From: Thermodesulfobacteriota bacterium
Lineage (GTDB): Bacteria; Desulfobacterota; Desulfarculia; JACQYL01
Assembly (NCBI GenBank): GCA_963675595.2
Contig: CAXXLZ010000001.1
Span: 416,001 to 480,000, forward strand
DNA: 64,000 bases
Direction of reading: 5' to 3'
The translations under genes were made by a program, and so were the position numbers. Below the pieces are notes generated by a model. It ran no database searches. It was not told the DNA's origin and worked only from the letters and a program-made list of their open reading frames with translations. Each line of letters starts with the position of its first letter. The stretch's first letter is position 1. Of the stretch, positions 37,258 through 62,067 are shown one piece after another.

Positions 37258-40200
37258 TTGCATTCGGACGAGGAACATTATCGCCGTTGGAAAGGGGAAT
37301 TGCAAACGGCCGAGGCCGTGGCGGTCGTGGGACTGGCCGCCCGGCTCCCCGGGGCTTCCGATATCCTGCGGTTCTGGAGGAACCTGGAGTCGGCCAGGGA
37401 CTGCATCACGGAAGTGACCCGTTGGAACCACGAATCGCTGTTTTCAACCAACCGGGAAGAGCCGGGAAAGACTTACTGTAAATGGGGGGGCTTCCTCGAC
37501 AGTGTGGACCGTTTCGATTCGGGATTCTTTCAGGTATCCCCGGCCCAGGCCCTCGAAATGGACCCAAGGCAGCGGCTGTTTCTGGAAGTCGCCTGGGAAG
37601 CCATCGAGAACGCGGGCATACCGGCGAGAGACCTCGCCGGCTCAAAGACCGGTGTGTTCGTGGGGGCTTCGAACAATCAGTACCTTCATCTATGGGGAAG
37701 CTCCGGTCTCGGAAGAATGAACGGTCTGGACAATACCGGCGCCGGTATCGCCAATCGCGTGTCCTTCTTCCTGGATTTGCGGGGACCGAGCACCGCGGTG
37801 GACACCACCTGCTCTTCTTCGATGACGGCGGTTCACACAGCCTGCCGGAGCCTGCTTTCGGGCGAATCGGAAACCGCGCTGGCCGGGGGAGTTCATCTGA
37901 ATCTTCTTCCGGAATATTACCTGACCATGAGCCGGATGCGCCTCCTGGCGTCCGAGGGGAAGCACCGGGTACTGGACCGACGGGCCGACGGCTTCATACC
38001 CGGAGAAGGCGTCGCGGTTGTGGTGCTCAAGCCGTTGGACCGGGCAATCCGCGACGGAGATACGATTCATGCGGTCATTCGGGGCTCGGCCGTGAATTAC
38101 TCCGGCAGGACGGGCCATTTGACGGAGCCGTCCCCGGAGGCCGAGAAGGAGGTGGTGGCCGAAGCCTTGGCCCGGTCGGATGTGGACCCGGAAAGCGTCT
38201 CTTATATCGAGCTCAACGGGGCGGGTACGGTCCTGGGCGATTCCGCGGAGGCCAACGCGCTTGGGGAGATATTCGGCGGGAATCGGAGCGGTCCCCTGTT
38301 CCTGGGCTCGGTGAAGAGCGGCATCGGCAACCTCGAGGCCGCCTCCGGCTTGGTGGGAATGATCAAAGTGATCCTGTCCATGCGTTTCCGAACCTTGCCC
38401 GCCATGCTTCATTTCGAGCAACCCAACCGGTTCGTTCGGTGGCGGGAGCTACCTTTTCAGGTGGTTTCGGAAACCGTACCGTGGGATGAGCGTTGTCGTC
38501 CCTTTCGTGCCGGGGTGAGTTCCTTCGGAGTGGGTGGAGCCAACGTACATGTCGTGCTCGAAGAGTGCCCCCGAGACATGGGAAACAAGGGACTCCCGGG
38601 CACCGTTCACCTATCACGGCCGCGTGAGGTTGATGAACGCCCCAGGCTCTTCGTCTGTTCGGCCCGGTCTCGTGAGGCGCTGAAACAGGGGCTGAGCAGA
38701 CTGTACCAAACGGTGGCGGAACGGATAGGCCCCGACGACCTTGGGAATCTGGCCTACACTCTGGCTGCGGGCAGGGAGCATTTCTCCCATCGTTTGGCCT
38801 GGGTCGTCTCCACCGGGGATGAGCTGCTTTCCGCCATGCGCCGATGCATGGAAACGGAAACATGGGAAAGTCTTTCCGAGGAGGAAGGGTGCTTTTACGG
38901 GGTGGCACCGACAACGAATACAAGGCGAAAAAAATCCTTCCCATGGATGGCCGAGGGAAAAAAGGAGGCGGCATCCGCCCGTCGTAACCCTGAGTTCGTA
39001 TTCGCCTTTGCGGCCTTCCGACCCGAGGATACGGCTTCATGGCGGGATGTGGAGTCTTGCGGAGCACCGGCTTGGATCCGCAAGTCCCTCATGGAACGGA
39101 AAGGCAAGGTGAACGCACTCCTGGACCGCTTTTTGTCGTCTGCGCGAGAGCGAGGCTTCACGCTTTCCAGCCAAGTCGCCGATAAGATCGAATGGGTGCT
39201 TCGAGGCATGGCGTTTCAGGAAACCGCAGCGCGCTTTCTATGGGAACTCGGTGTTCGGCCCGTCCGGACCGTGGCGGTCGGGTGGGGGGAATATGCGAAA
39301 CACTGCTTCGAGAATCCCGATGAATTGGAGACGATCTGCTCGGACTTGATGAACCGGGCGTCCTTGGACGAGCCGTTCATGGGAGAGTCCGATCCGCCTT
39401 TTGGTGTTTCCGACCCTGATGTTTTTGTTTTTTCGCCCGCATCGGTGCTTCGAGGCGGCGAGCTGTTGGGTCGGGCCGCCCGAGCCCACGTGCGGGGAGT
39501 GAGCCTCCGGTGGGAGTTGTCGACGGACGACGGTCTCAAACGCAAGTTGGCGTTACCCTCCTATCCTTTCGAGGGGCGGAGGTATTGGCCCGTTCCGGAC
39601 GGTGTCGAGCCGACAGGATCCGAGGCCTTGGAAGTCGGCGTGGAGAGGGAAGCGGCCGAGAACGCCAACCGCGCTTCGACGGATGTGGGGCCGGTTCGCT
39701 CCGAGGACCTTGCAGAGCGGATTAGTTCCGTTTTCATGCACGGCATGGTGGAGAAACTGGGCTTTCGCCCTGAAGAAATCGATGTGGACCGGCCGTTGGA
39801 GGCCTATGGATTCGACTCCATTTTCCTGGTTTCCTGCCTGGAGGAGTTGGAGCGGTCTTTGGGTGTGGTCATCAGCCGTTTCGAGGTCACGGATGCATCG
39901 ACTCTTCGGGGTATCGTGGAATGTTGCGTCTCCGTGGTCCTTCGGAAAAGTCCTGCTTCGGGCACCATTCGCCACACGTTTTCGGTGGGTACCCGCCGAA
40001 CCGATCGGAACGACTCCGAGGAGAGAATCGCAGTGGTGGGGATGGCGGGACGTTTTCCGGGAGCGGACGACCTGGACGAATACTGGGAGAACCTAATTTC
40101 CGCTCGGGAGTCCATTGTGGAGGTTCCACAGGAACGCTTCGACCTGTCTGCGCTCTACGACCCGGATTCCAGAAAGCCGGGGAAGACGGTCTCGAAATGG

Positions 40201-41307: not shown

Positions 41308-41397
41308 ATGTGAGTCGCGCTTCCGCGGATCGAGGTGTTTCCCATGGACCGCAGCGGAAAAGCATCTCTGCGACTTTGAGGCAAAACGGAGTCCTGT

Positions 41398-42729
41398 TTG
41401 GTTGTTTTGCTGGTGAATCCCAACCGGGTTAAGCCTCTAGTCCCTCCGTTGGGACTGGAATACTTGTCCGATGCGCTGCGCCTTGCCGGGCACGAAGTGC
41501 TTTTCTTCGATCTGGGATTCCGGCCTCCCGCGTCTTTGTTCGAGCTGGTTCGGCGGAAGAAGCCTGACATCATCGGGGTTTCCATCCGAAACCTGGACGA
41601 CGTCACCCTGCTTCGGAAGCACAACTACGTGCCCGGCATCGTCCGTCTGGTGAGGGAACTCCAACGTGTCTCGGATGCCCGGATCGTTCTGGGGGGGGCC
41701 GGCTTCTCGATTCTACCCCGAGAGCTCATGGAAGTCACGGGTGCGGATTTCGGGATTGCCGGTGATGGGGAAGAAGCCATGGTGGGGCTTCTGAACGATC
41801 TCGGTCAACCGCAACATATTCCCCGGGTTTGGTTCCGGGAGGGTGGTCCTTCGGGGCCGGTCCGTTTTTCTTTCGAGGGGCTTTCCGGGTCCTGGGGAGC
41901 CGGTTGCTCGCCACGTTCACTGCTGGACTACGCAGGATATCTGCGTCGAGGGAGTTCGTGCAACGTTCAGACCAAACGAGGTTGCACTCACCGTTGTCTA
42001 TACTGTCCAGAGCCGCGTGTTATGGGACGGATGATGCGGCTGCGCCCCGCGGAAGCGGTTGCGGAGGAGTTCGAAATCCTCGCTTCCATGGGCGTCCGGG
42101 AGCGGGTCTTTTTGGTGGACTCGGAATTTAATCTTGTTGAGGAACATGCCCTGGAAGTCTGTCGGATTCTGACGGAAAGGGCCTCCGGGGTGAAATGGGT
42201 ATGTTCCATGACCCCGAAATACGTGACGGAAGAACTCATCGGCTTGATGAAACGGGCGGGTTGTGACATGGTGATTTGGAGCGTGGACTCCGTATCCGAT
42301 GCAACACTGCAATCCCTGAGAAAAGACGTAGAGGAGACGGATGTTTTTCGAGTGTGCGGCTGGTGCGAAAAGGCGGGCTTGCCTTATTGTCTGGCACTGC
42401 TGCTTGGCGGACCGGCGGAAACGCCGGACACATTGAAGGCAACCTTTCGGAACGCCGGGAAGACTCGGGCGGCGTTTATCGCCGTGGGTGTCGGCTTGAG
42501 AATCTATCCAGGTACCGGTTTGCACGAAGTGGCCTTGGCGGAGGGCCAAGTGACCCGAGAAACGGATTTCCTGCAGCCTGTGTACTATCGAGAAGCTTGG
42601 GTGCGCGACACGTTGATTCCTCTGGTTCGAACGCAGATCGCAGAGGAGAGAAGGGCGGTGATGTTCGGCTCTCGACCGGACGTGACGGTCGAGGCGGAGA
42701 TTCGGAAGGTTTATCCCGTGCCCTTTTGA
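41398..42729 (+). CDS. Cobalamin-binding radical SAM protein #2 (lipid-biosynthesis/TsrM-like N-terminus)
   Basis: LLVNPN..KPLVPPLGLEYL, IGVSIRNLDD, LGGAGFS, QTKRGCTHRCLYCPEP, VDSEFN, GLRIYPGT. Confidence 0.9.
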   Translation: MVVLLVNPNRVKPLVPPLGLEYLSDALRLAGHEVLFFDLGFRPPASLFELVRRKKPDIIGVSIRNLDDVTLLRKHNYVPGIVRLVRELQRVSDARIVLGGAGFSILPRELMEVTGADFGIAGDGEEAMVGLLNDLGQPQHIPRVWFREGGPSGPVRFSFEGLSGSWGAGCSPRSLLDYAGYLRRGSSCNVQTKRGCTHRCLYCPEPRVMGRMMRLRPAEAVAEEFEILASMGVRERVFLVDSEFNLVEEHALEVCRILTERASGVKWVCSMTPKYVTEELIGLMKRAGCDMVIWSVDSVSDATLQSLRKDVEETDVFRVCGWCEKAGLPYCLALLLGGPAETPDTLKATFRNAGKTRAAFIAVGVGLRIYPGTGLHEVALAEGQVTRETDFLQPVYYREAWVRDTLIPLVRTQIAEERRAVMFGSRPDVTVEAEIRKVYPVPF

Positions 42730-42821: not shown

Positions 42822-44351
42822 ATGATTCAATTCACTTCCTTGGTTCCCAGATGGATCGGTGGAACTTCGCTTTCTCTGGTGGTGCTGCGAAGTTTCCTGC
42901 TTCATCACATGCCTCGGTTGAACATCGGCTATGGAACCTATCTGTGCGACGACGATCCGGAGGAAATCCTCGCGGGCGTCTACTCCCCGGATACGCGGGT
43001 CTACGCCTTCTCGGCGTATATGTGGAACCTCGAACTCACCTTGGATCTATGCCGGCGTCTCAAAGACCGAAATCCTCATTGTTTCGCTTTGCTGGGTGGA
43101 CCCACCGCCTCCTTTTCAGCCGACGCAATCCTGTCCTCGAATCCGTGGGTGGACCTCATTGTCAAGGGGGAGGGAGAGCTTCCTCTGCTGGAGTTGATTT
43201 CACGCATGGACCGAGGGGAGGAGGATTTTTCCGACATTCCCAATCTCGCCTACCGCCTGGACGGCCGACGAGTGGACACCCCGGCCATACCCACCATCCT
43301 CAATCTCGAAGACCAGCATTATGCTTTGGACGTCGACATGTTCGCGGGTGTGTCCACGGTTTATTATGAGACTTCCAGAGGATGCGTGTTCAAATGCCGC
43401 TATTGTTCCTGGAACGTCAACCAGTCGGGGATCAAACGTATCCGGCCGTACCCTCTGGAAAAGGTGATGCGCGAGCTGAGGCTGCTTTTCCGGCAGGAGG
43501 GGCTGGAAATGTTGCTGCTCACGGATTCGAATATTCTCCTGGGGGGCGAGCGGACCAAAGCCGTCTTCTCCGAGATCAACGCGCTCAACCAGGGTCGTCG
43601 AAGCAACGGCCTCCCCATGGTCAAGATCAACTTTGAATTCAATCCGGAGCATCTTACGGACGATCTCCTTCCGGAGATCAAGAAACTGCATGTCGAGAAC
43701 TACCCCATAGGTCTTCAAAGCGTGAATAAGGAGGTGCTCACGGAGGCGGGCCGGCCTTTCCACAGGGATAAGTACCTCGATGGGCTGAACAGGCTGCGAG
43801 AGAAGGCTGGGGCCGCCGTTTTGGTGGAGATTATTTACGGGCTGCCCAAAGATACGTTGGAAGGTTTCAGACGAACTCTTGAGTTTGTCCTGTCGGAGTT
43901 GAAAGCGGAGCTTTTTGTTTGTTACCGGTACTCGGTGCTGCCGGGTTCCGAGTTCTGGGATCGGAAGGAGCGTTACGGAATCCGCCATCTGGACGCGCCG
44001 CCCTATACGATCCTGAGTTCGGACTCCTTCCCGGAAGAAGACTTGGAAAAGGCCCAGGAGTTGGTTTATTACCTTCAGATCATTTACCGGGTCTTTCGGA
44101 GCCTGAAAAAGACCGTGGAAAACTCCGTGGAGGGAGACAAGCTGCCGGTGTATGAAGCGATCATACGCCGGTTTTCCGACAAGTATGGCGAGATACTCCG
44201 CCCCAAACTGATCTATGACGACGGTTTTCTGGACGATGTGGCCCGTTTGCGTTCGCGGGAGTTTTCCGAAACCCGTCGCAAGATGCTCTCCGAGGCCAGG
44301 GAGATCGTCAAAGAATATGCAGCCTCCAGGGAGGCTGAACGGAAATCATGA
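42822..44351 (+). CDS. Cobalamin-binding radical SAM protein #3
   Basis: FSAYMWN, LLGGP, GEGE, YETSRGCVFKCRYC, IGLQS, IYGLPKDT. Confidence 0.9.
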   Translation: MIQFTSLVPRWIGGTSLSLVVLRSFLLHHMPRLNIGYGTYLCDDDPEEILAGVYSPDTRVYAFSAYMWNLELTLDLCRRLKDRNPHCFALLGGPTASFSADAILSSNPWVDLIVKGEGELPLLELISRMDRGEEDFSDIPNLAYRLDGRRVDTPAIPTILNLEDQHYALDVDMFAGVSTVYYETSRGCVFKCRYCSWNVNQSGIKRIRPYPLEKVMRELRLLFRQEGLEMLLLTDSNILLGGERTKAVFSEINALNQGRRSNGLPMVKINFEFNPEHLTDDLLPEIKKLHVENYPIGLQSVNKEVLTEAGRPFHRDKYLDGLNRLREKAGAAVLVEIIYGLPKDTLEGFRRTLEFVLSELKAELFVCYRYSVLPGSEFWDRKERYGIRHLDAPPYTILSSDSFPEEDLEKAQELVYYLQIIYRVFRSLKKTVENSVEGDKLPVYEAIIRRFSDKYGEILRPKLIYDDGFLDDVARLRSREFSETRRKMLSEAREIVKEYAASREAERKS

Positions 44352-45892
44352 AACCGGTTCTGCTCAACGCGATCATTCCCAAATATTTCGGCAGTACCTC
44401 CATTTCATTGGTGATGCTGAAAAGCTATGCGTTGGACAAGTTTCACAGGGAAGGACGGTACCGGGACCTGGAATTGAGAGTTGCCCGCCATTACTGCGAG
44501 GAGGGCGAAGAAGCCATCTTGGAGCGCATTCTCGCGGACGGCTCCGATTTCCTGGCCTTCGCCGTTTACCCCTGGAATCATGCCCTGGTTCGTAGTCTGG
44601 TATCGCGGATCAAGTCGGTTCGGGAGGAGGCATGGATCGTATTGGGCGGACCCTCGGTCACCTATGACGCCTCGCGAGTGCTTGCAGCATGGGACGGAGC
44701 GGACGTCGTTGTGCGAGGCCCCGGTGAAGAGACTTTTTCCCTGCTTCTGGACCGTCGCCTTTCCGGGCAAGGGATCGAGGGCGTGCCCAACGTGGTCTAC
44801 CGGAACAACGGAGCGGTGCTCGAAGCTCCCGTTGAATTGAATTTTCGTATCGAGGACCAGGAATACGAACTGCTTACCGAGGACCTGGAAGACCTGGATA
44901 TCGTCAACTACGATACTTCCAGGGGGTGCACCTTTCAATGCGGATATTGCGCCTGGAACGTGGACGGCATCGAGCCCAAGGGATTTCGTTTCTACCCAAT
45001 GTCCAAAGTAGGGCGGGACCTGGAAAAGATATTTAAATTGGACGCTCTCGAAAAGCTGCTGCTCAACGATTCGAACATCACGATTCGGGAGGAACGATGC
45101 ATCGAAGTGTTCCGGCTCATTCGGTCCCTTAACGAGCGGCGCCGTTTGGAAGGGAAGAATCAGGTCTTCATTGTGTTGGACCTGAATCCCCAGTACTTCA
45201 CGGATCGGATCATCGACGAGTTGAAGAGGATGCACATCGGGGTTCTGGGATTCGGATTGCAGACCATCGATTCGGAAGTCCTGGATATCGCCCACCGGAA
45301 GTTGGACCTGGAACGATACGTAGGGAATCTCCGCAAGCTGGCGGAGAAAAGCGGCATTCAGATCATCATCGAATTCATCTTCGGCCTTCCCGGCGATACC
45401 ATGGAGAAGTTTCGCAAGAACCTCGAGTTCTTCTTCGAGGAGCTCGATACTTTCAGTTTCATCAGTTTTCGGTTTCTCCTGCTTCCCGGCTCCCCCTTCT
45501 GGCGAGAGAAGGAACACTACGGCATCGTACACTCACCCGAGCCGCCGTATGACGTGCTGTCCACACCCACATTCTCCGCCGAAGAAATGGACTATGCGGA
45601 TTGGCTGTCCTCCTGGTTCGAGATCTTCTTCAGTATTTTCCGAAGCGTGAAGAAGACCGTTGACGCTTCGGCCAAAGAGAATGGTCTGTCACGGGTTGCC
45701 GTTTACGAAGCGTTGTTTGAACGTTTGTCCAAGAACTACGAATGGTTTTTCGATAAAGGGTGGAAGCAGGAGCACACCTACTACTATATCGAGAAGATTC
45801 GCGAACGGGAAAACGCGGCCGTTCGACAGGGGATTTTGGCGGATTCCAGGCGGGTCCTTAAAGATGTTGTAAAGACTCTAAACGTGCGGTAA
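44348..45892 (+). CDS. Cobalamin-binding radical SAM protein #4 (paralog of #3)
   Basis: FAVYPWN, VLGGP, GPGE, YDTSRGCTFQCGYC, FGLQT, IFGLPGDT; ATGA-coupled to #3. Confidence 0.9.
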   Translation: MKPVLLNAIIPKYFGSTSISLVMLKSYALDKFHREGRYRDLELRVARHYCEEGEEAILERILADGSDFLAFAVYPWNHALVRSLVSRIKSVREEAWIVLGGPSVTYDASRVLAAWDGADVVVRGPGEETFSLLLDRRLSGQGIEGVPNVVYRNNGAVLEAPVELNFRIEDQEYELLTEDLEDLDIVNYDTSRGCTFQCGYCAWNVDGIEPKGFRFYPMSKVGRDLEKIFKLDALEKLLLNDSNITIREERCIEVFRLIRSLNERRRLEGKNQVFIVLDLNPQYFTDRIIDELKRMHIGVLGFGLQTIDSEVLDIAHRKLDLERYVGNLRKLAEKSGIQIIIEFIFGLPGDTMEKFRKNLEFFFEELDTFSFISFRFLLLPGSPFWREKEHYGIVHSPEPPYDVLSTPTFSAEEMDYADWLSSWFEIFFSIFRSVKKTVDASAKENGLSRVAVYEALFERLSKNYEWFFDKGWKQEHTYYYIEKIRERENAAVRQGILADSRRVLKDVVKTLNVR

Positions 45893-46397: not shown

Positions 46398-46662
46398 CAA
46401 CTCGAATCCTCATGGGAAAATCACCTTGGGATGGAATTTCCGAGAGCCGGTTCCGGTAGACCTTGCCGGGCAATCAAAGGCGCTCTTATGGAGGCAAAGT
46501 CGTTCATGCGAAGTTTTGGCCAAGAGCGTTGCCCAATGGTGCCCCGACTCTTGTCCGGCTTGAGAGGCTTCACGTCCTTCCCCGCTTTCGGACTCTTATG
46601 GATGGGGCCGGCGGCCGAGCGTGCGCTTCGAGCTCTTCTTTTCGAGGACCTTTCGCGTGCCG

Positions 46663-49296: not shown

Positions 49297-49357
49297 ACCC
49301 GCTTAGAGGCACACGTTCGTCGCGAACCGTTTTCCGTTGTGTCGGCAAGGGGTTGTG

Positions 49358-52416: not shown

Positions 52417-52429
52417 ACCGGGGGAATCC

Positions 52430-53383
52430 ATGACGGTTTCCGGACATGACGAGAACCTGGAAGATCGGTTCTACGAAATTATGGCGGAAGGGTATCGAGA
52501 GGACTCCGTTTACGACTACCTGGTTCTTTTTTCGGGAGGCAAGGACAGCACATATCTGGCGCACCTGTTGAAGAAGGCTCGAGGGAAACGAGTCTGCCTT
52601 TTCACGGTGGAAAACGGTTTCGAGGAATCCGGCTTTTTGCCTCATGTCTTTGAGACCGCGGAGCTGCTTGGTCATGATGTGTACGTGTATCGACCTCCCA
52701 AGGAACGATTCGTTCATCTGTACCGATACCTGATCACGGAACCCGTGCTCCGGTCCATGGACGGGAACCCTTTATGTTTCTTTTGCGGCAGGCATTTTAT
52801 GTCGCTGGGCGTGCGTTTCGCCGAACAATGGAAGATTCCTTTCGTGCTGTATGGTGCGACACCGGACCAAGTGAGTTCGGGGACTCGCCCCAAGACGGCG
52901 AGGGACCTGCGGATCCTGGAAATGGTTTCCGCCAGGGTGTTTGACAAGAATTATGAAAAGATTCGTTCCACCCGGGGGTATTGTGAAGACGCATGGGTGC
53001 GGGAATCCATGGATGCGGTTTTCCATCGTTCTTCCACCGTTCGGCTTCTGTTTCCTTTTCTCTTCGTCGGCTACGACGTGGAAGGAATCAAAGCGGCGCT
53101 GAAACAGGCGTATGGGTGGAAGAATCCATCCGGTTTGTCGGACGACCGATATTTGACGTCGGGGTGCCGGATGGTTGAGTTGTTCGGTGTTCTCGCGCGG
53201 AAAGCGGGGTTCGCTCCTCACGAAAAGGATCAGTTCGAGCGGAATTATCGGGAAGGAACGCTGGGGGAGTCGGCCTACCGTTGGAACCGTGACCTGTTCG
53301 ACGAGATATTGAAGGGAGAAGTGACTCCTCGTGTGAGGGAGCTGGCGGAGGAATTGGGAGTGGAGGACATGCTCCCGGATTGA
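52430..53383 (+). CDS. PP-loop (AANH-superfamily) ATP pyrophosphatase with CxxC plus distal Cys
   Basis: LVLFSGGKDSTY (52532-52549), FTVENGF, PLCFFCG, TSGC. Confidence 0.8.
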   Translation: MTVSGHDENLEDRFYEIMAEGYREDSVYDYLVLFSGGKDSTYLAHLLKKARGKRVCLFTVENGFEESGFLPHVFETAELLGHDVYVYRPPKERFVHLYRYLITEPVLRSMDGNPLCFFCGRHFMSLGVRFAEQWKIPFVLYGATPDQVSSGTRPKTARDLRILEMVSARVFDKNYEKIRSTRGYCEDAWVRESMDAVFHRSSTVRLLFPFLFVGYDVEGIKAALKQAYGWKNPSGLSDDRYLTSGCRMVELFGVLARKAGFAPHEKDQFERNYREGTLGESAYRWNRDLFDEILKGEVTPRVRELAEELGVEDMLPD

Positions 53384-53394
53384 CGGCGAGGTCC

Positions 53395-54447
53395 ATGGGA
53401 GGAGTGACGGAATTGGCGCAAAGCGACGTGCCTCCATTAGATAAGAAAGTTGTTTCCGCCCAATTGCAGGTGGTGGGAGATGTGGTCGGGGCCTGGAAGG
53501 CCCAGGTGTTGATGACCCTTTTCCGGCTGGGGGTATTCGAAGAACTGCGGGAAGGCCCCCGGAACGGCCCGTTCCTGTCGTCCCGCCTGGGCTTGCCCCT
53601 GGAATCCCTGACACGTCTATTGGAATGCGGCTCGGATTTGGGGTACTTGAAAAAGCTGGAAGATCGATACGAGAATGTGGAGGCGACGTCCTCCGTCCTG
53701 CTGGAAGGCAGTGCCGGATACCTGGGAAACTGGCTGAACCTGGCGTCGAGATGGTACCACTCCTTCGGCCGTCTGGAGGAGGCCGTTCGGCAGGGAAAAG
53801 CCGTGGAGAACGCCAACGAGCCTGAGGACTCTTCATATCGGGATGATTTTGTTCGCGGCATGATCGATTTCGCCCGATACCGGGGAAGAGAAGTCGTGGA
53901 CTATCTGGACTTGGATGGAAAGCATCATCTTCTCGACGTGGGATGCGGTCCGGGTGTTTATTCGGCGCTCTTCGCGGAACATCACCCTGAGCTTCGCTGC
54001 ACCGCCGTCGACTTGCCCGATGCCCTGGTTTCAGCGGAAGAGTACGTGAGAAGCCGCGGCCTCGAAGATCGTGTACGCCTGGAAGCGTGCGATTACCTGA
54101 CTTCCGAATTCCCCGGGAAGGAATACGACGTGGTGTTCCTCTCCCACGTTCTGCACCAGCAGAACCGGGAGGAGTGCCTGGATTTGCTTCGCAAGAGCCG
54201 GGACGTTTTGAAGAGCGGCGGACTGGTGGTGGTTCAGGCCATGTTCGGTGAAGAAGGCGGATGGGGTTCCAAGTACGCTTCTCTTCATGACCTGTTGAGC
54301 CTTCTGGTGTTCCCGGGCGGGAAAAACCATTCGGTCGCGGACACCATGCACTGGATGGAGCTAACGGGTTTTCGGAATACGGCGCACCGGAAGATGTCCG
54401 TGTTCAACTCCAATTCGCTGGTGATCGGCGAAAAGCCTCGGAATTGA
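53395..54447 (+). CDS. SAM-dependent O-methyltransferase (Methyltransf_2 with dimerisation domain)
   Basis: LGVFEEL N-terminal domain, LLDVGCGPG, VDLP, LSHVLH, LKSGG. Confidence 0.88.
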   Translation: MGGVTELAQSDVPPLDKKVVSAQLQVVGDVVGAWKAQVLMTLFRLGVFEELREGPRNGPFLSSRLGLPLESLTRLLECGSDLGYLKKLEDRYENVEATSSVLLEGSAGYLGNWLNLASRWYHSFGRLEEAVRQGKAVENANEPEDSSYRDDFVRGMIDFARYRGREVVDYLDLDGKHHLLDVGCGPGVYSALFAEHHPELRCTAVDLPDALVSAEEYVRSRGLEDRVRLEACDYLTSEFPGKEYDVVFLSHVLHQQNREECLDLLRKSRDVLKSGGLVVVQAMFGEEGGWGSKYASLHDLLSLLVFPGGKNHSVADTMHWMELTGFRNTAHRKMSVFNSNSLVIGEKPRN

Positions 54448-54451
54448 TCGC

Positions 54452-55594
54452 ATGGACCTCGAACCGAAACAATCCGAGCAGGACCGAATCCGGGAAATCC
54501 GGCGGATCTGCGGGGAATATCTGGAACCCCTTGCATCGGCCATGGACCGCTCGGCTGATTTCCCTTTGGAAACCCTGAAGCTTCTGGGTGAATTCGGCTT
54601 CTTGGGTCTTCAGGTTCCGGAGGAATACAAAGGCTGCTTCTCAGGGGATGCGTATTATTACTCGGTCATCGAAGCCATGGCCGAAACGAGTCCGGCGCAT
54701 GCGCTCACCGTGATTTCTCATTCCTTGTGCTGTCGCTTGATCAGGGACTTCGGCACGGATTCCCAGAAAGCGGCCTATCTGTCCGGCCTGGCCACGGGCC
54801 GGATCATGGGCGCCGTATGCATGACCGAAGCGGGAGCGGGATCGGATTTGAACTCCATACGAACTCGGGCGGTAAAGCGAAAGAACCGCTACGTGATTGA
54901 TGGGCGAAAGCTCTTTATCACCAACGGCGGTTTCGCGGACGTCTTCGTGGTCCTGGCGTCTACGTCGGATCAAGACGGGCCCTTTACCAAGAGTCTGTTT
55001 ATTGTTCCTAAAACGTCCAAGGGTATCCGTTCGGGGAAAAAAGAGATGAAGCTGGGCTTCCGGGGAGCGGATACTCGAGAAGTGATTCTGGACGGAGTGG
55101 ACGTGCGGTCGGACCTTCTGCTGGGCCGGGAAGGAAACGGATTGATCCAGATGGCGCGTGCCATGGAAGGATCGCGATTGGCCGTGGCGGCCATGGCCTT
55201 GGGACTTGCGGAACGGTCTCGGCGGCTGGCGCTGAAAAGCGTTCGATTCCAGGAAAAAGACGGGACTTCCGAGGCGGTGCTGGAGGGTCATCGAATGCTG
55301 TTGGCGGAGACGGCCACGGAGATCATGTGCGTGCGTTTGCTGATCAAAAGGGCCGCGGAAGTCCAGGCGGAAGGAAAACCCGTCACGGACCTGGCGGCCA
55401 TGGCCAAATGGTTTTCCGCCGAAACGGCGATGCGGGCCGCATCGAATACGCTCCAAATCTTGGCGATGACGGAGGACCGCCACCACCGGGAAGCGGAGCG
55501 GCTCTTTCGGGACGCCAAGTTGTGCGGCATCATCGAAGGCACCACGGAAATCCAGAAAAAGATCGTGGCCCGCTTCGCATTTACGGGTGATTGA
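54452..55594 (+). CDS. Acyl-CoA/acyl-ACP dehydrogenase family protein
   Basis: CMTEAGAGSD, GRKLFITNG, KLGFRG, RDAK..IIEGTTEIQK. Confidence 0.9.
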   Translation: MDLEPKQSEQDRIREIRRICGEYLEPLASAMDRSADFPLETLKLLGEFGFLGLQVPEEYKGCFSGDAYYYSVIEAMAETSPAHALTVISHSLCCRLIRDFGTDSQKAAYLSGLATGRIMGAVCMTEAGAGSDLNSIRTRAVKRKNRYVIDGRKLFITNGGFADVFVVLASTSDQDGPFTKSLFIVPKTSKGIRSGKKEMKLGFRGADTREVILDGVDVRSDLLLGREGNGLIQMARAMEGSRLAVAAMALGLAERSRRLALKSVRFQEKDGTSEAVLEGHRMLLAETATEIMCVRLLIKRAAEVQAEGKPVTDLAAMAKWFSAETAMRAASNTLQILAMTEDRHHREAERLFRDAKLCGIIEGTTEIQKKIVARFAFTGD

Positions 55595-55731: not shown

Positions 55732-57300
55732 TTGCATTCAACGGTCTCCTTCTTGGAGGACGCCGCCGAGGAATATTCGGGAAAGACCGCATTGATGGGA
55801 GCCGGTCGAAAGACCACCTATGCGGAGTTGCGGGCCGGCGCCCGCCGGTTTTCGGAGGCTCTTCAAAGCGGGGGGGTGAAGCCCGGGGCCAGAGTCGTGC
55901 TGAGCTTCACCCGTGAAACGGAATTCGTCCAAGCCTATTGGGGAGCCCTTCTGGCTTCGGCGATTCCCGTGTTGGTGAGCGCGGCGATGCCTCCCTCCAA
56001 GCTGGAATACGTGATCAACGACTCGGGCGCGGCAGCCTTCGTTGGTGCCGAGGCCGCGTTCAAGGCACTGCCCGAGCCTCCCTCGTCGCTGAAGACCGCT
56101 TTGCTGATTTGTGGAGGCGCGGGTGGGCCGGAGAGAGGCTTCCAAATCGAGATTCCGAACAGCGGCGTGAATGTGCATCGGCCGGACGGGGGGGCCCCGG
56201 AATCTCCCGGTGAACGGGAAGGGATTCCGGGATTCACCTGTATTTACACTTCGGGAACCACGGGCCGACCCAAGGGGGTCATGCTTTCGGCAACCAACAT
56301 CCGGTACGGAACCCGCATGATCCGGGAGTTCTTGGCCCTCGGTCCGGAAGACCGGAGCCTTCCGGCCATGCCGTTCACCCATTGTGCCGGACTGCTCCAC
56401 CTCCTCGCCCTTCTCGAGACGGGGGGGGCGGTGGTCACGGGATTTGCACCGGCATTGCCCGGTTCTTTCCTCAACGCCGTGAGGGATTTGAAGGTGACCG
56501 TCCTGCCGGTGGTTCCGGCGATGATGACCTTGCTTCTCAGCCGTTACGGAAGAGACCTGCCGGAGCGGTGTCGATCCCTCAGGGTGATGGAGTTCTCCAG
56601 CGCTCCGTTGGCGCCGTCCCTGGTGCGGGAGGTTCGCGGACTGCTTCCGCAGGTTGATCTGTTCAATACTTACGGCCTCACCGAGGCACCCAGAATCACC
56701 TACGCCCGCCTCGAAAGCGAAGAGGGCGACGAGGACCATGTGGGACGGGTGAATCCGGAGCTGACCGTGTTCATCGACCGATCCGCAAACCCTTCCGACA
56801 AGGTGGGGGAGGTTTGCGCGCAAGGGCCCAATGTGGCCGAGGGCGGCTATTGGAACGGTTCCGCGGGCGGTGACGCGCGGTTTTCTTCCAACGGGTTCCG
56901 CACCGGTGACTTAGGTTGGCTGGATGAGGAGAACCGGTTGCATCTCGCCGGGAGATCCGACGATCTGTTCAAGGTGGGAGGAGAAAACGTCTATCCGGAG
57001 GAGATCGAACGGGTCATTTCGTCAATGAAGGGGATATCGGACGCACGGATCGATGCGGTCGAAGACCCCTTGCTCGGCACGCGCATCGTTGCACGCGTGG
57101 TCGGATGTTCCCCCGAAGTGACCGCGAAAGCCGTTTCCGCGTATTGCCTGCGTCATCTCGAACGCTTCAAGGTCCCTTCCCGGATCGATTTTGTCGAAGA
57201 AATTCCACGGACGGAGTCGGGCAAGCACTCCCGGTCCCGGTCTCGTGTTGACTCGGACCCCTGCAGGTTCGGCGGATCCAACGGGAACGGGTCGGCCTAG
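55732..57300 (+). CDS. Class I adenylate-forming enzyme (acyl/aminoacyl-AMP ligase) #1
   Basis: IYTSGTTGRPKG, TYGLTE, FRTGDLG, GENVYPEEIE, PRTESGK. Confidence 0.92.
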   Translation: MHSTVSFLEDAAEEYSGKTALMGAGRKTTYAELRAGARRFSEALQSGGVKPGARVVLSFTRETEFVQAYWGALLASAIPVLVSAAMPPSKLEYVINDSGAAAFVGAEAAFKALPEPPSSLKTALLICGGAGGPERGFQIEIPNSGVNVHRPDGGAPESPGEREGIPGFTCIYTSGTTGRPKGVMLSATNIRYGTRMIREFLALGPEDRSLPAMPFTHCAGLLHLLALLETGGAVVTGFAPALPGSFLNAVRDLKVTVLPVVPAMMTLLLSRYGRDLPERCRSLRVMEFSSAPLAPSLVREVRGLLPQVDLFNTYGLTEAPRITYARLESEEGDEDHVGRVNPELTVFIDRSANPSDKVGEVCAQGPNVAEGGYWNGSAGGDARFSSNGFRTGDLGWLDEENRLHLAGRSDDLFKVGGENVYPEEIERVISSMKGISDARIDAVEDPLLGTRIVARVVGCSPEVTAKAVSAYCLRHLERFKVPSRIDFVEEIPRTESGKHSRSRSRVDSDPCRFGGSNGNGSA

Positions 57301-57302
57301 GC

Positions 57303-58247
57303 ATGGTCGTCGATTTCCACGTTCATTTATTCGACCACGACTGGCTCCCTCGTCGTTGGTGGAAGGCCATGGAGGACTTTCACGAGCGGAGAGGCCCGAT
57401 CAAAGGCCTGGGCAAACCTTTCGATATGGGAGAATACTGCGATCCCTCGGGCGAACGTTTAGTCCGGGAGATGGATGAGGCAGGCATCGACCACAGCGTG
57501 GTGTTTCCTTTGGACGTGGGTCTACTGCTGGGAGAGCCCCCGGTTTCCATACGGAAGCAGAACGAACTCCTCGCGGATGTGGCCCGCAGGTATCCTTCAA
57601 GGATTACGGCCTTTTTCGGAGTGGATCCACGAAGACCAGGGGCCGTTGAATGGATCGAAGCCGGCATCCGAGAGTGGGGCATGGGAGGCGTGAAATTTCA
57701 TCCGGGCTCGGGGTTTCACCTAAGTCGGGAGGAGTTCTTTCCCGTGCTGGAACGAATCGCCGATCTCGGGGTCCCTTTGGTAACGCATACCGGACCCGCT
57801 TTCGGACCTCTGGACGGCAGCGGCTGCGATCCCATGGAACTCGACAAGGCTTTGGGACGCATTCCCGGGCTCAAGATCGTGGCCGCCCATCTGGGCGGTG
57901 GACGGGTGGACGAGCTGTGCTGGTTGGGCGCCATGAAGGAAAGTCTTTATGCGGACATCTCCCTCCGGCAGCTCGAATGTCGCCGGAACCCCGAGGCGTT
58001 CGCTGAGACATTGAGAAAGGCCCTGGATTTCATGGGGCCCGACCGGATTCTATTCGGTACGGACTGGCCGTTTTCCCGAAAGGCGATGGCGGCGGGAGCG
58101 TATGTTCGAGCTCTTCGGGAGTTTTCCCGCGGCTCGTCGGCCGTTCTGCTCTCCGGTGAAATCAAACGATTGCTGGGGGGTAACGCCCTCCGGCTTCTGG
58201 GAAAAAAAGGAGAGGCTCTTCAGCGTGGATATCGAGTCGACACGTGA
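57303..58247 (+). CDS. Amidohydrolase_2 family metal-dependent hydrolase
   Basis: DFHVH, KFHP, HTG, AAHLG, FGTDWP, GGNA. Confidence 0.88.
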   Translation: MVVDFHVHLFDHDWLPRRWWKAMEDFHERRGPIKGLGKPFDMGEYCDPSGERLVREMDEAGIDHSVVFPLDVGLLLGEPPVSIRKQNELLADVARRYPSRITAFFGVDPRRPGAVEWIEAGIREWGMGGVKFHPGSGFHLSREEFFPVLERIADLGVPLVTHTGPAFGPLDGSGCDPMELDKALGRIPGLKIVAAHLGGGRVDELCWLGAMKESLYADISLRQLECRRNPEAFAETLRKALDFMGPDRILFGTDWPFSRKAMAAGAYVRALREFSRGSSAVLLSGEIKRLLGGNALRLLGKKGEALQRGYRVDT

Positions 58248-58482
58248 ATCGGTTTATAGGTTTATACGGGATGAAATGAACCATGGAGAGGAGTTTCCTC
58301 TGGAGACCGACCTGATTCAACAGGGGCTGATCGACTCCATGGGCGTGATGAAACTTATCGGCTTCCTTGAAACGACCTTCGGCATCCAGATCGAATTGGA
58401 CCGGGTAAGCGCGGAGCATTTTCAGTCCGTGGGGGCCGTGGCGGATCTGGTGGCCTCATGCGAGAAGGGCGAGACTGCGTGA
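58225..58482 (+). CDS. Stand-alone carrier protein (DltC/aminoacyl-ACP-like)
   Basis: LIQQGLIDSMGVMKLIGFLETTFGI; GTG start at 58225 after AAGGAGAGG. Confidence 0.85.
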   Translation: MDIESTRESVYRFIRDEMNHGEEFPLETDLIQQGLIDSMGVMKLIGFLETTFGIQIELDRVSAEHFQSVGAVADLVASCEKGETA

Positions 58483-58751
58483 TGATGGAAAGAGAAGGGG
58501 TCCTTGCCCTGATCGAAGAGTTTATCAGGGATACGTGCAACATCCCGGCAGACACTCCCGGATTCACCAGATCGTGCGATCTTTTTGAGGAAGGGTTCGT
58601 GGATTCCATGGCCCTGGTGAGGCTCGTCGCTTTCCTGGAATCCGAATTCGATGTTGAAATCGAAGAAGAGAATTTATTCGACGAGCGCTTCCTGACCATC
58701 GAAGGACAGGGAGACTTGGTCCTGGAACTGAAGAATTCAGTGGGGCGGTAA
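58482..58751 (+). CDS. Stand-alone carrier protein (DltC/aminoacyl-ACP-like), second copy
   Basis: LFEEGFVDSMALVRLVAFLESEFDV; start overlaps upstream stop. Confidence 0.87.
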   Translation: MMEREGVLALIEEFIRDTCNIPADTPGFTRSCDLFEEGFVDSMALVRLVAFLESEFDVEIEEENLFDERFLTIEGQGDLVLELKNSVGR

Positions 58752-59073
58752 GGCGAGGACGGAAGAACGTCCGAGCCTGTCATGAGTTCGCTGCACCCCC
58801 GATAGGATGCGCGTTTGGGTCGTCCTTGGACGCTTCCATGAGCCTCGTCCTCGATTTGGAGCCTCGGTCCCGTGAGGGCGGGCCATAGTCCCCGTCCTGC
58901 GCGCAAGAACACACAGATACCGAGAGTCCCCTTAGGATACGGCGGAGTTGGGAGAACAGTCACGATTCCGGCGTCCGATTCTTTCCTGATGGATGTTTCA
59001 AATGTATTATTCCCCGACCACTCCGTGGACGCGCACCTGAAAGGGTTCATGGCAAGCTGTGGTGAGGTCATCC

Positions 59074-62067
59074 ATGTCGGCTGACATGAGTCACCGGGAC
59101 ATTGCCGTCATCGGCATGGCGTTTCGTTTGCCCGGAGGAGACGATCCGGAGGTTTTCCGGGATCGGCTTCTTGCGTCGGAAGACTGCCTGGGAACGTGGC
59201 CGGATTCCATCCGCAGCGGTGCGCGGGGTCCCGTGAGGCCTGCCGGAATCATCCAAGGAGTCGACCTGTTCGACGCTGCGTATTTTGGAATCGCTCCTCG
59301 CGAAGCCGCCTTGACGGATCCAAGGCGGCGTTTGGTTCTCGAGATGTCCGCCACCGCGCTGGAGACCTGCGGCTATGGAGGAGATCGTCTTCGAGGTTCC
59401 GACACCGGGGTGTTCCTCGGCGTGAGCAACAATGGAGACTACGGCACCGGGGGCGCCGCCGGGGGCTTGGGAGCACTCAACGTATCGGACGCCATGATCG
59501 CTCACGAGGTGTCCCGATTCTTTGATTTCACGGGACCCAGCCAGGTGGTGGACACCCTCTGTTCTTCGGCCTTGGCGGCGGTGCACCAAGCCTGTTGCGC
59601 CTTGCGGGAAGGTCGTTGCTCAACGGCTCTGGCCGGAGGCGTCAGCCTGCTTCTTTCGGTGAGTCATTTCGAAGCCCTGGAAGGCATGGGACTGCTGTCG
59701 CGATCCGGAAAATGTCGAACCTTCGACGTGGATGCCGACGGATTCGTCCTGGGAGAAGGCGTGGGCGTGTTTCTCCTGAAGTCTTTGAAAGCCGCACTTC
59801 GAGACGGGGACCCGCTTTGGGGCGTGATCAAAGGCGGTGCCGTGGCTTTCAACGGGCGTGGAGAACACCCCTTGGCCCTGCGTGCCGAAGCGGTGGAGCG
59901 AGTGGTGACGCGGGCCATGAGGGACGCGGGGACCGCTCCGGCCGCCATCTCCTTTATCGAAACCGCCGGAACCGGGACCCCCATGGGAGACGCCGCCGAG
60001 GTTCGAGGGCTGCGTTCGGCCTTTGGTTCCGCGGTCGGTAAGGCACCTTTCTGTGGATTGGGAGCCGTGAAGACCCGTGTGGGCAACCTCGAAGCGGCCT
60101 CGGGGATTGCCGCACTGGTAAAGACTTTGTTGATGATGCGGGGGAAATTCATTGCGGCGAACCTGAACTTCCATCGTGTGAATCCGCTTATCCGGCTCAA
60201 AGGATCGCCCTTCCGTCTCTGCAACGAGCTCGACGAATGGACGACGGCCAACCGGGCGCCCAGGAGGGCGGGAGTTTCCGCTTTGGGCATAGGAGGAGCT
60301 CATTACCACCTGATCCTGGAGGAGCCGCCTTCGGAAGGGTTTACCCTGGGACCGAGTCGACCGCGAACATCCGAGCCGCTCTTGCTGTGCCTTTCGGCCG
60401 GGAGCCTTTTCCAACTCAGAGAGCTTTGCCGCAGGTACCGGCGCAGGCTCGAGGATCTTTCGGAATGCACGCCCGAGGAGCTTTGTCACACCCACAACAC
60501 CGGAAGCGGAGATCTGCCGGTTCGGCTGGCCTTGACCGCCCGAGACGGGGAGGAACTTATTGGCCTTCTGAAGCGGGGCGAGTTCGACGACCCCGTGCCC
60601 CGACACGGTTTGGAGGGCATGTTCTTCCACGACGGTTACGCTGGGGATATCCGAAGGAAACGGAACCCCCTCAAAGATCTTCGTTCTCCGAGCGGTGAGG
60701 GCGGGCGGGCCGATCCCGAACGCCTTGCCGGACGAACCGGACTGATTCAGGGTGATTTGGTGTCGTGCGAACATCCCGAGACTGCACTCCAATCCATCGG
60801 CGTTTCGCTCGGTGAATGGGGGGTCAGGGTGGGCCCTTCGATAAGCGCTGCGGCCGGCGACACGCAGCCCGACGCCGAGGCGATGGTGCCGGACCGCCTG
60901 CGCGAATGCGTCTCCCGAGGTATTCGCACTTTTGTAACCATGGGGCTGTCGGACGATTTTCGCAACCGGATTTCGGAAGAGGTGCCGGAAGCGTTTCTGA
61001 TTCCGTGGCCCGGCTCGGGCGCCGATCTTATGGAGCGCAGGCGTCTCGCGGCCGCACTTTACGCACATGGCGCCCGTCTCGATTTCGAAATGCTTCAGGG
61101 GAGCGGCAACCTTCGCAAAGCGATGTTGCCGCCGTACCCTTTTGCCCGGAAATCTTTTTGGAGAACGGCTCCCGATGATGGGCTGCATAAGGCTTCGCCG
61201 GCCGGGACTTGTGCTGCGGAGAGGATTTCACCTGAAGACCTCGCCGGGATGCCCCCATCGGAGTTGAAGGAACGGGTGGAGGGCTTTCTGAGGGAGGCGG
61301 CCTGCGAAAGCGCGGGCTTGGATTGCGGGAAAGAAGAGATCGTGCTCTTCTCGGATTGGTGCTTGGACTCACTGGCGCGCGTTCAACTCGCCCGTCGGGT
61401 CGAGTCTCGGTTCGGAGTCCGCATTGACCTTCAGGCGTTTCTGCGGCATGACCACGTGGCTCTGCTGGCCGAATACGTGGTGGGCCGGATTCGGTATGGG
61501 AGCGTGGAAAAGCCCGTGGAGCCCCGAGAGGATGATCATCGGGCTCGGGTCATCCTGGAGACGGCTTCCGCCGCTCATTGGGAGGCGGTGCGTGCCTGGC
61601 TGAACGACGAGGGAGTCAACCAGTGGCTGGATCCGTTTTTCCAGGAAGGATTCGGCGCTCGAGAATACGCCTACTTCCTGAAACAACGGGATCGGAATAC
61701 CTGGGTCATCGTGGAGGACGGAATTCCGGTGGGAATCTGCGGGCTGGTCCAGGTGGACCTGCGCAACCTCGGCGCGGAAACCTGGATCGTGGTGGGCGAC
61801 CTCTCGGCGCGTCTCAGGGGTGCGGCCGTTGCCGCGGGCGAAGCTTTGTGTGGAAAGGCGTTTCTTGAATTGGGCCTAAGAACCTTGAACGCCAAGGTGA
61901 GATGGGACAATGTTCCCGCCTTGGAAATGACGGAGTACTCGGGTTGGAGGCGGGTGGGCACCCTTAGAAACTCCCTGAAGGTGGGAGATGCCTTCCACGA
62001 CAGGGAGCTTTTCGAACTGACCCGTGAGGATTTCGAGGACCGGCGGAATCGAGGCGAAACTCCATGA
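59074..62067 (+). CDS. AT-less PKS-like protein KS-(AT remnant)-ACP-GNAT; KS non-canonical
   Basis: KS DTLCSS / ETAGTGT / RVGNLE; LPPYPFARKSFW; ACP CLDSLA (Ser 61369); C-terminal RimJ/RimL-like GNAT (AFLELGLRTL.A.V..DN..A...GW..VG.LR). Confidence 0.9.
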   Translation: MSADMSHRDIAVIGMAFRLPGGDDPEVFRDRLLASEDCLGTWPDSIRSGARGPVRPAGIIQGVDLFDAAYFGIAPREAALTDPRRRLVLEMSATALETCGYGGDRLRGSDTGVFLGVSNNGDYGTGGAAGGLGALNVSDAMIAHEVSRFFDFTGPSQVVDTLCSSALAAVHQACCALREGRCSTALAGGVSLLLSVSHFEALEGMGLLSRSGKCRTFDVDADGFVLGEGVGVFLLKSLKAALRDGDPLWGVIKGGAVAFNGRGEHPLALRAEAVERVVTRAMRDAGTAPAAISFIETAGTGTPMGDAAEVRGLRSAFGSAVGKAPFCGLGAVKTRVGNLEAASGIAALVKTLLMMRGKFIAANLNFHRVNPLIRLKGSPFRLCNELDEWTTANRAPRRAGVSALGIGGAHYHLILEEPPSEGFTLGPSRPRTSEPLLLCLSAGSLFQLRELCRRYRRRLEDLSECTPEELCHTHNTGSGDLPVRLALTARDGEELIGLLKRGEFDDPVPRHGLEGMFFHDGYAGDIRRKRNPLKDLRSPSGEGGRADPERLAGRTGLIQGDLVSCEHPETALQSIGVSLGEWGVRVGPSISAAAGDTQPDAEAMVPDRLRECVSRGIRTFVTMGLSDDFRNRISEEVPEAFLIPWPGSGADLMERRRLAAALYAHGARLDFEMLQGSGNLRKAMLPPYPFARKSFWRTAPDDGLHKASPAGTCAAERISPEDLAGMPPSELKERVEGFLREAACESAGLDCGKEEIVLFSDWCLDSLARVQLARRVESRFGVRIDLQAFLRHDHVALLAEYVVGRIRYGSVEKPVEPREDDHRARVILETASAAHWEAVRAWLNDEGVNQWLDPFFQEGFGAREYAYFLKQRDRNTWVIVEDGIPVGICGLVQVDLRNLGAETWIVVGDLSARLRGAAVAAGEALCGKAFLELGLRTLNAKVRWDNVPALEMTEYSGWRRVGTLRNSLKVGDAFHDRELFELTREDFEDRRNRGETP

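Follow-up and report, generated by a model that had tools for sequence, protein, structure and literature searches.

Ketosynthase (KS) domains are taken as a signature of chain extension. In polyketide synthases (PKSs), two reports define KS0 domains by loss of the His of the HGTG(T) motif with retention of the active-site Cys (PMC4661987, PMC7327777). "Ladderane-like" clusters which include genes for B12 radical S-adenosylmethionine (SAM) enzymes occur outside the anammox bacteria, according to PMC9902471 and PMC2649909; the latter reports that no PKS-like enzymes were found in those genomes. The present work concerns a stretch of 64,000 nt (referred to as the window) from a Thermodesulfobacteriota bacterium (assembly GCA_963675595.2, contig CAXXLZ010000001.1, positions 416,001 to 480,000), which encodes three KS domains, KS1, KS2 and KS3, on two proteins. 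Genome-mining tools would class the locus with polyketide clusters and expect a polyketide as its product. The analysis favors a different reading: KS1 to KS3 are probably working, selected, non-elongating KS-like domains, belonging to a rare thiotemplated cluster which arose from a PKS with cis-acting acyltransferases (cis-AT) and has given up extension.

Both KS frames are open according to the listing of open reading frames (ORFs) and their translation, and both lie on the forward strand. They encode proteins of 1349 aa (P0001, 37258-41307) and 1002 aa (P0002, 59059-62067), in which the KS domains are accompanied by acyl carrier protein (ACP) domains. Here and below, P-numbers denote proteins and L-numbers loci compared in the analysis, and G000 is the source genome.

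37258-41307, + strand: KS1-AT remnant-ACP-KS2 protein, 1349 aa (Pfam ketoacyl-synt twice, KS linker families, PP-binding)
37306-38574, + strand: KS1 domain, triad Cys37810 / Asn38215 / Asn38329
38818-39657, + strand: linker and vestigial AT behind KS1 (MAFFT alignment with 8 canonical ATs)
39751-39924, + strand: ACP domain of P0001, residues 832-889 (Pfam PP-binding; GFDSI serine present)
40015-41298, + strand: KS2 domain, triad Cys40531 / Gly40936 / His41053
59059-62067, + strand: KS3-linker-ACP-GNAT protein, 1002 aa (Pfam)
59089-60333, + strand: KS3 domain, triad Cys59560 / Ala59965 / Asn60085; gating Phe of SFG changed to Leu
61288-61479, + strand: ACP domain of P0002, residues 744-807 (Pfam PP-binding; CLDSL serine)
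61546-62064, + strand: C-terminal GNAT domain of P0002 (Pfam Acetyltransf_3, Acetyltransf_1)

Motif searches and alignments placed the retained Cys and the substituted His positions of all three domains at exactly the coordinates given in the original prediction, which had been made from the letters of this DNA. KS1 carries DTTCSS (Cys 37810), ELNGAGT (Asn 38215) and GIGNLE (Asn 38329), KS2 carries DTACSS (Cys 40531), EAGSTGS (Gly 40936) and NIGHAE (His 41053), and KS3 carries DTLCSS (Cys 59560), ETAGTGT (Ala 59965) and RVGNLE (Asn 60085). When KS1 is compared with solved KS structures, "ielNgag" aligns with "eaHgtg", and "ksgigNle" with "ksnigHce" or "ktnigHle"; a profile alignment of 1167 KS domains likewise reads the three triads as CNN, CGH and CAN. 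None of the three has the Cys-His-His triad of elongating domains, and all show the KS0 pattern of a kept Cys and a lost HGTG(T) His. The form of this pattern which keeps the second His (NIGH) is found in KS2 only, KS1 and KS3 having Asn at that position.

Both halves of the KS domain (PF00109 and PF02801) score above the cut-off of 20.8 bits: 574 and 222 bits in P0001, in two stretches each, and 214 and 92 bits in P0002. Comparison with 966 CHH domains reveals additional changes near the active site. In the KS3 clade, the SFG motif has lost its gating Phe, mostly to Cys and in the window to Leu; the KS1 clade has GKHRVLD in place of a conserved GRCxxFD stretch and so gains a conserved His; and the Ala after the second His motif has become Ser in all three clades. 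The Lys of VKxxxG is retained in KS1 and KS3.

These substitutions are the property of a family. Homologues of the KS1-ACP-KS2 protein fall into nine protein clusters of the same architecture (P0003, P0004, P0007-P0010, P0012, P0013 and P0017) and those of the KS3-ACP-GNAT protein into eight (P0123-P0130), with KS, PP-binding and Acetyltransf_3 in all 8 aligned members of the latter. In the search alignments, identity to the window proteins is about 35-53%, rising to as much as 59% when only the KS domains are considered. The 1167 KS domains were taken from all proteins and loci of the analysis and aligned to a single profile; background KS domains were supplied by a KS1 search of representatives, the best 150 matches of which are giant multimodular synthases (by summed scores). 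The family rows include duplicate genes (L102 is L015, P0130 is L112 and P0126 is L106), and P0013 closely resembles L095 and L098. The triad is CHH in 970 of the 1167 domains, followed by QHH (65), CQH (27), CNH and CAH (18 each), CNN (14), SHH (12), CGH (11) and CSN (6), with rarer triads making up the rest.

Cys-x-Asn triads number 24 (CNN 14, CSN 6, CAN 2, CTN 1 and CGN 1), and every one belongs to a KS1 or KS3 of the family. Since none occurs among about 1,585 KS domains outside the family, namely the 1128 other domains of the alignment and 457 further ones from 115 long synthases, the pattern is not due to chance. CGH is the triad of a family KS2 in 11 of 11 cases and is equally absent from the 1128 and 457 domains. 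Within the family, the active-site Cys is present in all 39 KS rows; KS1 rows are CNN or CSN (10 of 10), KS2 rows CGH (11 of 11), and KS3 rows Cys-x-Asn in 14 of 18, the other four being CNH and coming from one lineage. The search for GNLE-type homologues, proposed together with the original prediction, has yielded a defined family, and Cys-x-Asn with GNLE constitutes a recognizable KS sequence class.

The relationships among the three domains were examined in a maximum-likelihood tree of 86 rows (32 family, 34 CHH, 14 KS0-type, 4 KSQ and both CHN), for which the background rows were sampled at random, and seven redundant family rows and the remaining background rows were omitted. KS1 (10 rows), KS2 (10 rows) and KS3 (12 rows) each form a single clade, with support of 99, 100 and 100, respectively, in the Shimodaira-Hasegawa-like approximate likelihood ratio test (SH-aLRT), and KS1 and KS3 group together with a value of 96. 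In this tree KS1 and KS3 are sister paralogue clades, and GNLE would therefore go back to a duplicated ancestor of both and have been maintained since. The shared GNLE had been put forward as a sign of selection; its maintenance agrees with that, while its sharing is explained in the first place by common descent.

Sequencing error and decay were considered as sources of the substitutions. Logan contigs of two runs, which may stem from the source sample of the genome, show no differences over 37258-41307. Over the stretch, the contigs of a run from another study are about 95% identical, differing in 173 letters and by a single GGC insertion that keeps the frame; among the differences listed for this relative, 38 amount to 36 changed codons, 25 synonymous and 11 non-synonymous, and the codon changes in KS1 are 22 synonymous and 6 non-synonymous. 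The insertion lies at window position 41000, in the variable KS2 loop that separates the two His-motif positions, and P0003 has an extra residue matching it. P0003, which is 94% identical and comes from an independent assembly, keeps ELNGAGT, GIGNLE, EAGSTGS and NIGHAE, and its partner P0123 has Cys-Ala-Asn. More distant homologues, at about 40-59% identity, retain all three patterns as well. Another run, X8, gave short contigs covering 12 of 30 bins and was excluded from the comparison, and none of the runs listed as RNA contains the stretch.

For KS3, nine genes with available DNA gave 36 pairs, in 16 of which the ratio of non-synonymous to synonymous divergence (dN/dS) is 0.17-0.30 at dS 1.9-3.1, values that accord with the selection expected by the original prediction; 17 pairs are saturated at synonymous sites, so most ratios are rough. 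At this saturated divergence the KS3 gene frames, of about 1000 codons, are all open, and frames are intact in more than eight lineages. Because deep homologues conserve the substitutions, frames remain intact despite saturation and synonymous changes dominate, the substitutions as read from these alignments are selected and not decayed. Sequencing error was rejected in view of the identical contigs of the two runs and the motifs kept in an independent relative, and pseudogene formation in view of the intact frames and the conserved substitutions.

The machinery for extension is missing from the locus as well. No AT, ketoreductase (KR), dehydratase (DH), enoylreductase (ER) or thioesterase (TE) is matched by Pfam in any large ORF of the window, as had been noted before; that statement needs amending to the extent that AT remnants lacking the active-site motifs lie behind KS1 and probably behind KS3. 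The remnant behind KS1, aligned by MAFFT with 8 canonical ATs, has GVRPVRTVAVGWGEY at the position of G-x-x-P-x-x-x-x-GHSxGE, and GQGxQ is absent. It is followed by a post-AT linker, LPSYPFEGRRYW, which matches those of the erythromycin PKS (EryAII modules 3 and 4) and others; in a sequence search with the region that separates the KS1 linker from the ACP, this post-AT linker is the only part that matches solved structures. PF00698 has no match in residues 511-831 of P0001 or residues 488-744 of P0002, even at E values up to 10. An AlphaFold2 model of P0001 residues 440-831 has a mean pLDDT of 57, and the AT-remnant insert is poorly modelled. In homologues, AT-type remnants are found also behind KS2 (GSRWGQ in P0007 and P0008) and behind KS3, and the nucleophilic Ser is gone in 9 of 10 aligned AT segments of the family. 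The sole remnant keeping a Ser at the nucleophile position is that behind KS2 in P0009 (around residue 1390), which reads GSSLGG and has lost GQGxQ. Together, these AT remnants point to a cis-AT ancestry of the cluster.

The possibility that elongating modules are hidden beyond the window was examined across the full genome, a 98%-complete assembly of 6.79 Mb in 3 contigs. PF00109 is found at 24 places, of which just the three in the window are in long type I frames, the other places being frames of about 290-500 aa. Besides the housekeeping one, several of the latter form neighboring pairs of FabF-size KS frames (G000:C2:2503908-2505867, C2:3890785-3892790, C2:3380400-3384267 and C3:195179-196922), which resemble KS/chain-length-factor or other type II sets. 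PF00698 gives a single AT match, in a frame of about 351 aa on another contig. The 17 kb past the window hold the rest of a pyridoxal phosphate (PLP)-dependent decarboxylase gene, two unknown minus-strand genes, DUF481, an HlyD/ABC/FtsX efflux set, DnaJ and an aminotransferase, and no PKS genes; ahead of 35866 there are mnmG, regulators and one unknown gene. Hidden modules were thus rejected, since the genome has no type I KS besides these three and no PKS gene lies in the 17 kb downstream, and the canonical modules and AT beyond the window, which would have spoken against the original prediction, did not appear. The setting of KS0 domains, among elongating modules served by a dedicated trans-AT, is not that of this genome; since it has no canonical modules, KS1 to KS3 are hardly ordinary KS0 domains.

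The KS proteins belong to a cluster which extends from 35866 to about 64980, with all genes on the plus strand. Its other members are as follows.

35866-37221, + strand: B12-binding radical SAM enzyme A, with which the cluster opens (Pfam Radical_SAM and B12-binding, the latter at 27.6, below the family cut-off of 32.1)
41398-42729, + strand: B12 radical SAM enzyme B (Pfam; best NCBIfam match TIGR04072, "lipid biosynthesis B12-binding/radical SAM protein", 297.9 bits, below the cut-off of 360)
42822-44351, + strand: B12 radical SAM enzyme C (Pfam; KedN5-type C-methyltransferase family 103.5 bits, cut-off 700)
44348-45892, + strand: B12 radical SAM enzyme D (Pfam; KedN5 family 106.8 bits, cut-off 700)
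45990-46397, + strand: free-standing ACP with GIESF serine (Pfam PP-binding 36.9 bits, cut-off 20.8; NCBIfam acyl carrier protein matches under their cut-offs)
46621-47793, + strand: 2-hydroxyacyl-CoA dehydratase / benzoyl-CoA reductase-type subunit (Pfam HGD-D 189 bits; NCBIfam matches to benzoyl-CoA reductase (BCR) subunit C, double-cubane reductase and HadC, all under cut-off)
47956-49296, + strand: second dehydratase-type subunit (Pfam HGD-D 172 bits; HadB-like 144 bits, under cut-off)
49337-50725, + strand: B12 radical SAM enzyme E (Pfam; syntenic homologues in L015, L111 and L112)
50718-51422, + strand: Sfp-type 4'-phosphopantetheinyl transferase (Pfam 4PPT_N, ACPS)
51427-52416, + strand: conserved 329-aa protein, syntenic in 4 loci
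52367-53383, + strand: PP-loop ATPase-like protein (weak Pfam matches to DUF7411, ThiI and PP-loop; WbuX amidotransferase family 52.7 bits, cut-off 203)
53380-54447, + strand: SAM-dependent O-methyltransferase-type enzyme (Pfam Methyltransf_2)
54452-55594, + strand: acyl-CoA/ACP dehydrogenase (all three Pfam Acyl-CoA_dh domains)
55732-57300, + strand: adenylate-forming ligase 1 (Pfam AMP-binding; best NCBIfam match a long-chain fatty-acid CoA ligase subfamily, 271 bits, cut-off 476)
57303-58247, + strand: Amidohydrolase_2 family protein (Pfam 117 bits)
58228-58482, + strand: small carrier protein with GLIDSM serine (Pfam PP-binding 26.5 bits, cut-off 20.8)
58458-58751, + strand: second small carrier protein with GFVDSM serine (Pfam PP-binding 26.8 bits, cut-off 20.8)
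62064-63623, + strand: adenylate-forming ligase 2 (Pfam AMP-binding; TIGR03098)
63523-64000 and on beyond the window end (whole gene L013:1523-2980), + strand: PLP-dependent decarboxylase of the Orn/DAP/Arg fold (Pfam; TIGR03099; lysA 291.9 bits, cut-off 297.9)

All five radical SAM proteins match both Pfam families expected of class B radical SAM enzymes (a B12-binding domain followed by a radical SAM domain) at E <= 0.01, and the TIGR04072 scores of enzymes A, C, D and E are 56-87 bits. The carrier domains of the cluster are five, two in the KS proteins and three free-standing, and their serines are intact. The three small free-standing carrier proteins were absent from the original prediction; the two tandem ones are conserved in L015, L108, L111 and L112. 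A minus-strand ORF (58355-59071, 238 aa, no family) overlaps both of their genes and is probably spurious. The 329-aa protein matches no Pfam or NCBIfam family, and possibly has a GNAT fold, a lead provided by its nearest ESM Atlas clusters, which are GNAT families (score 0.96). The C-terminus of P0002 is assigned to GNAT by Acetyltransf_3 (35.7, cut-off 25.4) and Acetyltransf_1 (25.5, cut-off 20.7), with weak PDB matches to aminoglycoside 6'-N- and diamine N-acetyltransferases. A decarboxylating GNAT of the CurA type was rejected, the weak matches being to amine N-acetyltransferases instead.

Several traits accord with the reading of KS1 to KS3 as non-elongating domains. Those needed for extension have been lost jointly (the decarboxylation His, the gating Phe of KS3 and the AT motifs), and those for handling thioesters have been kept by selection (the KS Cys, the five carrier serines and the phosphopantetheinyl transferase). 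The KS domains most likely just transfer or hold acyl chains, as judged by their residues. Taking residues and gene context together, we infer a transacylase or gatekeeper role which feeds radical tailoring. Under such a scheme, the two adenylating enzymes would load a carboxylic acid, probably a fatty-acid-like one, onto a carrier, and the Cys-only KS domains would accept the acyl thioester and pass it between carriers or hold it, with no carbon added. The tethered chain might then be tailored by the five B12 radical SAM enzymes, the dehydratase-type pair, the acyl dehydrogenase and the methyltransferase, before the GNAT domain would free it by N-acylation of an amine linked to the adjoining PLP decarboxylase. 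A bolder version of this scheme, which we offer only tentatively, is that the former PKS has become an undescribed thiotemplate relay without extension, in which the Cys-x-Asn KS clade covalently holds a fatty-type chain and hands it among the five carriers, the five B12 radical SAM enzymes and a radical enzyme of the dehydratase type alkylate or cyclize its unactivated carbons, and the product is an unusual N-acyl-amine lipid or metabolite of anaerobes.

A number of observations weigh against the non-elongating reading. Acyl transfer is deduced from residues alone, and the second His is kept in one KS3 lineage (P0126, L106, L109 and L111). The tree was obtained by a quick search without a mixture model and its deeper joins are provisional; the codon split of the 95% relative is a sample (40 of 177 difference rows); and three near-identical KS3 pairs, with few changes, have dN/dS of 0.66-0.77. 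The activator family for enzymes like the dehydratase-like pair (PF01869) has 10 matches in the genome and none in the cluster. The conserved Asn at the second His position may also mean that residual condensing chemistry persists: Asn aids decarboxylation in Cys-His-Asn enzymes of the FabH and chalcone-synthase type, and malonate might be loaded in trans by the lone AT of the genome, a task that housekeeping ATs perform for some synthases.

These last points lead to the strongest of the rival explanations, namely that the KS domains still form C-C bonds by a non-canonical route, either decarboxylative condensation, with the conserved Asn as oxyanion-hole donor and malonate supplied in trans by the housekeeping AT, or a non-decarboxylative reaction of the Claisen or Michael type from the Cys thioester. 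The Asn is found in 24 of 28 KS1 and KS3 rows, the VKxxxG Lys and the active-site Cys are retained, the GKHRVLD stretch of the KS1 clade offers a new conserved His, and the genome does have one AT. Yet the residue at the first His position is Asn, Ser, Ala, Thr or Gly, a variation too free for a catalytic donor under constraint, and it is Gly in KS2; in addition, KS3 has lost its gating Phe, the motifs of the cis AT domains are gone, and Pfam detects in the window no KR, DH or ER for processing a beta-keto group. On balance, we consider such bond formation unlikely. Still less is to be expected of a purely structural role, in which the KS domains would serve as dimerization or docking scaffolds for the carriers and radical SAM enzymes with no covalent part in the chemistry: the KS-linker and post-AT-linker elements are indeed conserved, but the Cys of DTxCSS, which a pure scaffold does not need, is invariant in 39 of 39 rows across three clades at saturated divergence. 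Finally, it is scarcely credible that KS1 to KS3 are the usual KS0 domains of some larger trans-AT line with elongating modules elsewhere, or products of a decaying cluster or of sequencing errors, for although loss of the HGTGT His is the usual KS0 mark and CQH, CNH and CAH are common in large synthases, the 98%-complete genome has no other type I KS, the 17 kb downstream contain a decarboxylase, DUF481, an efflux set and genes without a known family, the two runs (perhaps of the source sample) agree without a difference, and the motifs and frames persist in an independent relative and in more than eight lineages, respectively.

The gene order of the cluster is conserved beyond the KS proteins, on unrelated contigs and in distant lineages. 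The series of 329-aa protein, PP-loop protein, methyltransferase, acyl dehydrogenase, ligase, amidohydrolase, two ACPs, KS3-ACP-GNAT protein, ligase and decarboxylase is complete in L015 (a Desulfobacula metagenome-assembled genome), L108 and L112 and partial in L111 and L109, and the syntenic proteins of these five loci are 33-59% identical to those of the window. A homologue of enzyme A stands before the KS1 gene in L095 (1-669) and after the decarboxylase in L015; in the latter (17176-17955) it follows the decarboxylase and precedes KS1, a rotated gene order compared with the window. Among 80 loci, taken from one genome per species, a full-length match to P0002 is found only in L015, and among metagenome loci P0002 is matched to its end in 5 of 16, with 2 more cut by contig ends. 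The non-KS half of P0002 is found in none of 40 genomes from the same family, order or class. A scan of genome contigs with P0002 only gave no match, whereas an alignment-based scan did find loci. The cluster is thus rare and patchy in its occurrence, which fits horizontal spread. No description of a comparable gene cluster was found in open-access full text, and one may exist elsewhere.

Elsewhere in the window, a minus-strand group at 861-7128 comprises a nucleotidyl transferase (861-1571), a myo-inositol-1-phosphate synthase (2330-3505), a CDP-alcohol phosphatidyltransferase (4641-5870) and a class 3 lipase (6037-7128), and resembles an inositol-lipid or inositol-solute set. A 1215-aa minus-strand frame without a Pfam family (8408-12055) overlaps a 727-aa plus-strand frame (8234-10417) where the left half of the window is richest in G+C.

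If all three KS domains only carry and hand over chains, an assembly-line scaffold would have been reused for presenting substrates to radical enzymes, and if the five B12 radical SAM enzymes act on carrier-bound substrates, the cluster would offer difficult C-H chemistry in abundance. Being small, conserved and patchy in distribution, the family lends itself to expression and assay.

Parts of the cluster recall described systems without belonging to them. Ligase 2 and the adjacent decarboxylase, which lie near carrier proteins, have the exosortase-A-associated pair TIGR03098/TIGR03099 among their best matches, both under the cut-offs (224 versus 592 bits and 375.9 versus 478 bits), and no exosortase context is seen. 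With the "ladderane-type" clusters (TIGR04072), the locus shares its occurrence in anaerobes, carrier-based lipid genes beside B12 radical SAM genes, and the best match of enzyme B, which at 297.9 versus 360 bits falls short of membership in that family. As described, those clusters use type II enzymes of the FabF type, whereas the core of the window has a type I KS architecture.

Altered triads are known in other KS-fold proteins. KSQ loading domains and chain-length factors have the KS fold and an altered triad in common with the window domains, yet the KSQ change is the opposite one: its Cys is replaced (Gln-His-His, 65 of 1167) and both His are kept for decarboxylation, while here the Cys is kept and His lost. 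The Cys-His-Asn enzymes of the FabH and chalcone-synthase type, a different branch of the thiolase superfamily, have Asn at the third position and keep their His; they share this Asn with KS1 and KS3, whose middle triad position is occupied by Asn, Ser, Ala, Thr or Gly. Loss of both His is not unique to the family, since among the 457 further KS domains a Cys-Asn-Ala KS was found in four Streptomyces PKS clusters. These synthases of about 4,050 aa (P0405, P0406, P0411 and P0417) resemble KS1 and KS3 in keeping the Cys and losing both His, but theirs is a single domain (around residues 1673-2121), within a multimodular protein with KR, DH and methyltransferase (MT) domains, and its third residue is Ala rather than Asn; it looks like an unrelated second case of second-His loss. 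Related long Streptomyces synthases (P0414, P0419, P0424, P0425, P0433 and P0437) contain one KS with Cys-His-Ala/Gly.

The nearest counterparts are the KS0 domains of trans-AT PKSs, which have the same fold, the kept Cys and the lost HGTGT His, and for which the expected role is likewise acyl transfer without condensation; KS2, with its Cys-Gly-His triad, fits the usual KS0 definition. Unlike in trans-AT lines, every KS of this pathway is of the non-elongating type, in a genome without an elongating type I KS or a dedicated trans-AT. The family differs from usual KS0 domains also in that the second His of KS1 and KS3 has given way to a conserved Asn, in that KS1, KS2 and KS3 each form a conserved clade of their own, and in that the AT remnants suggest a cis-AT origin.

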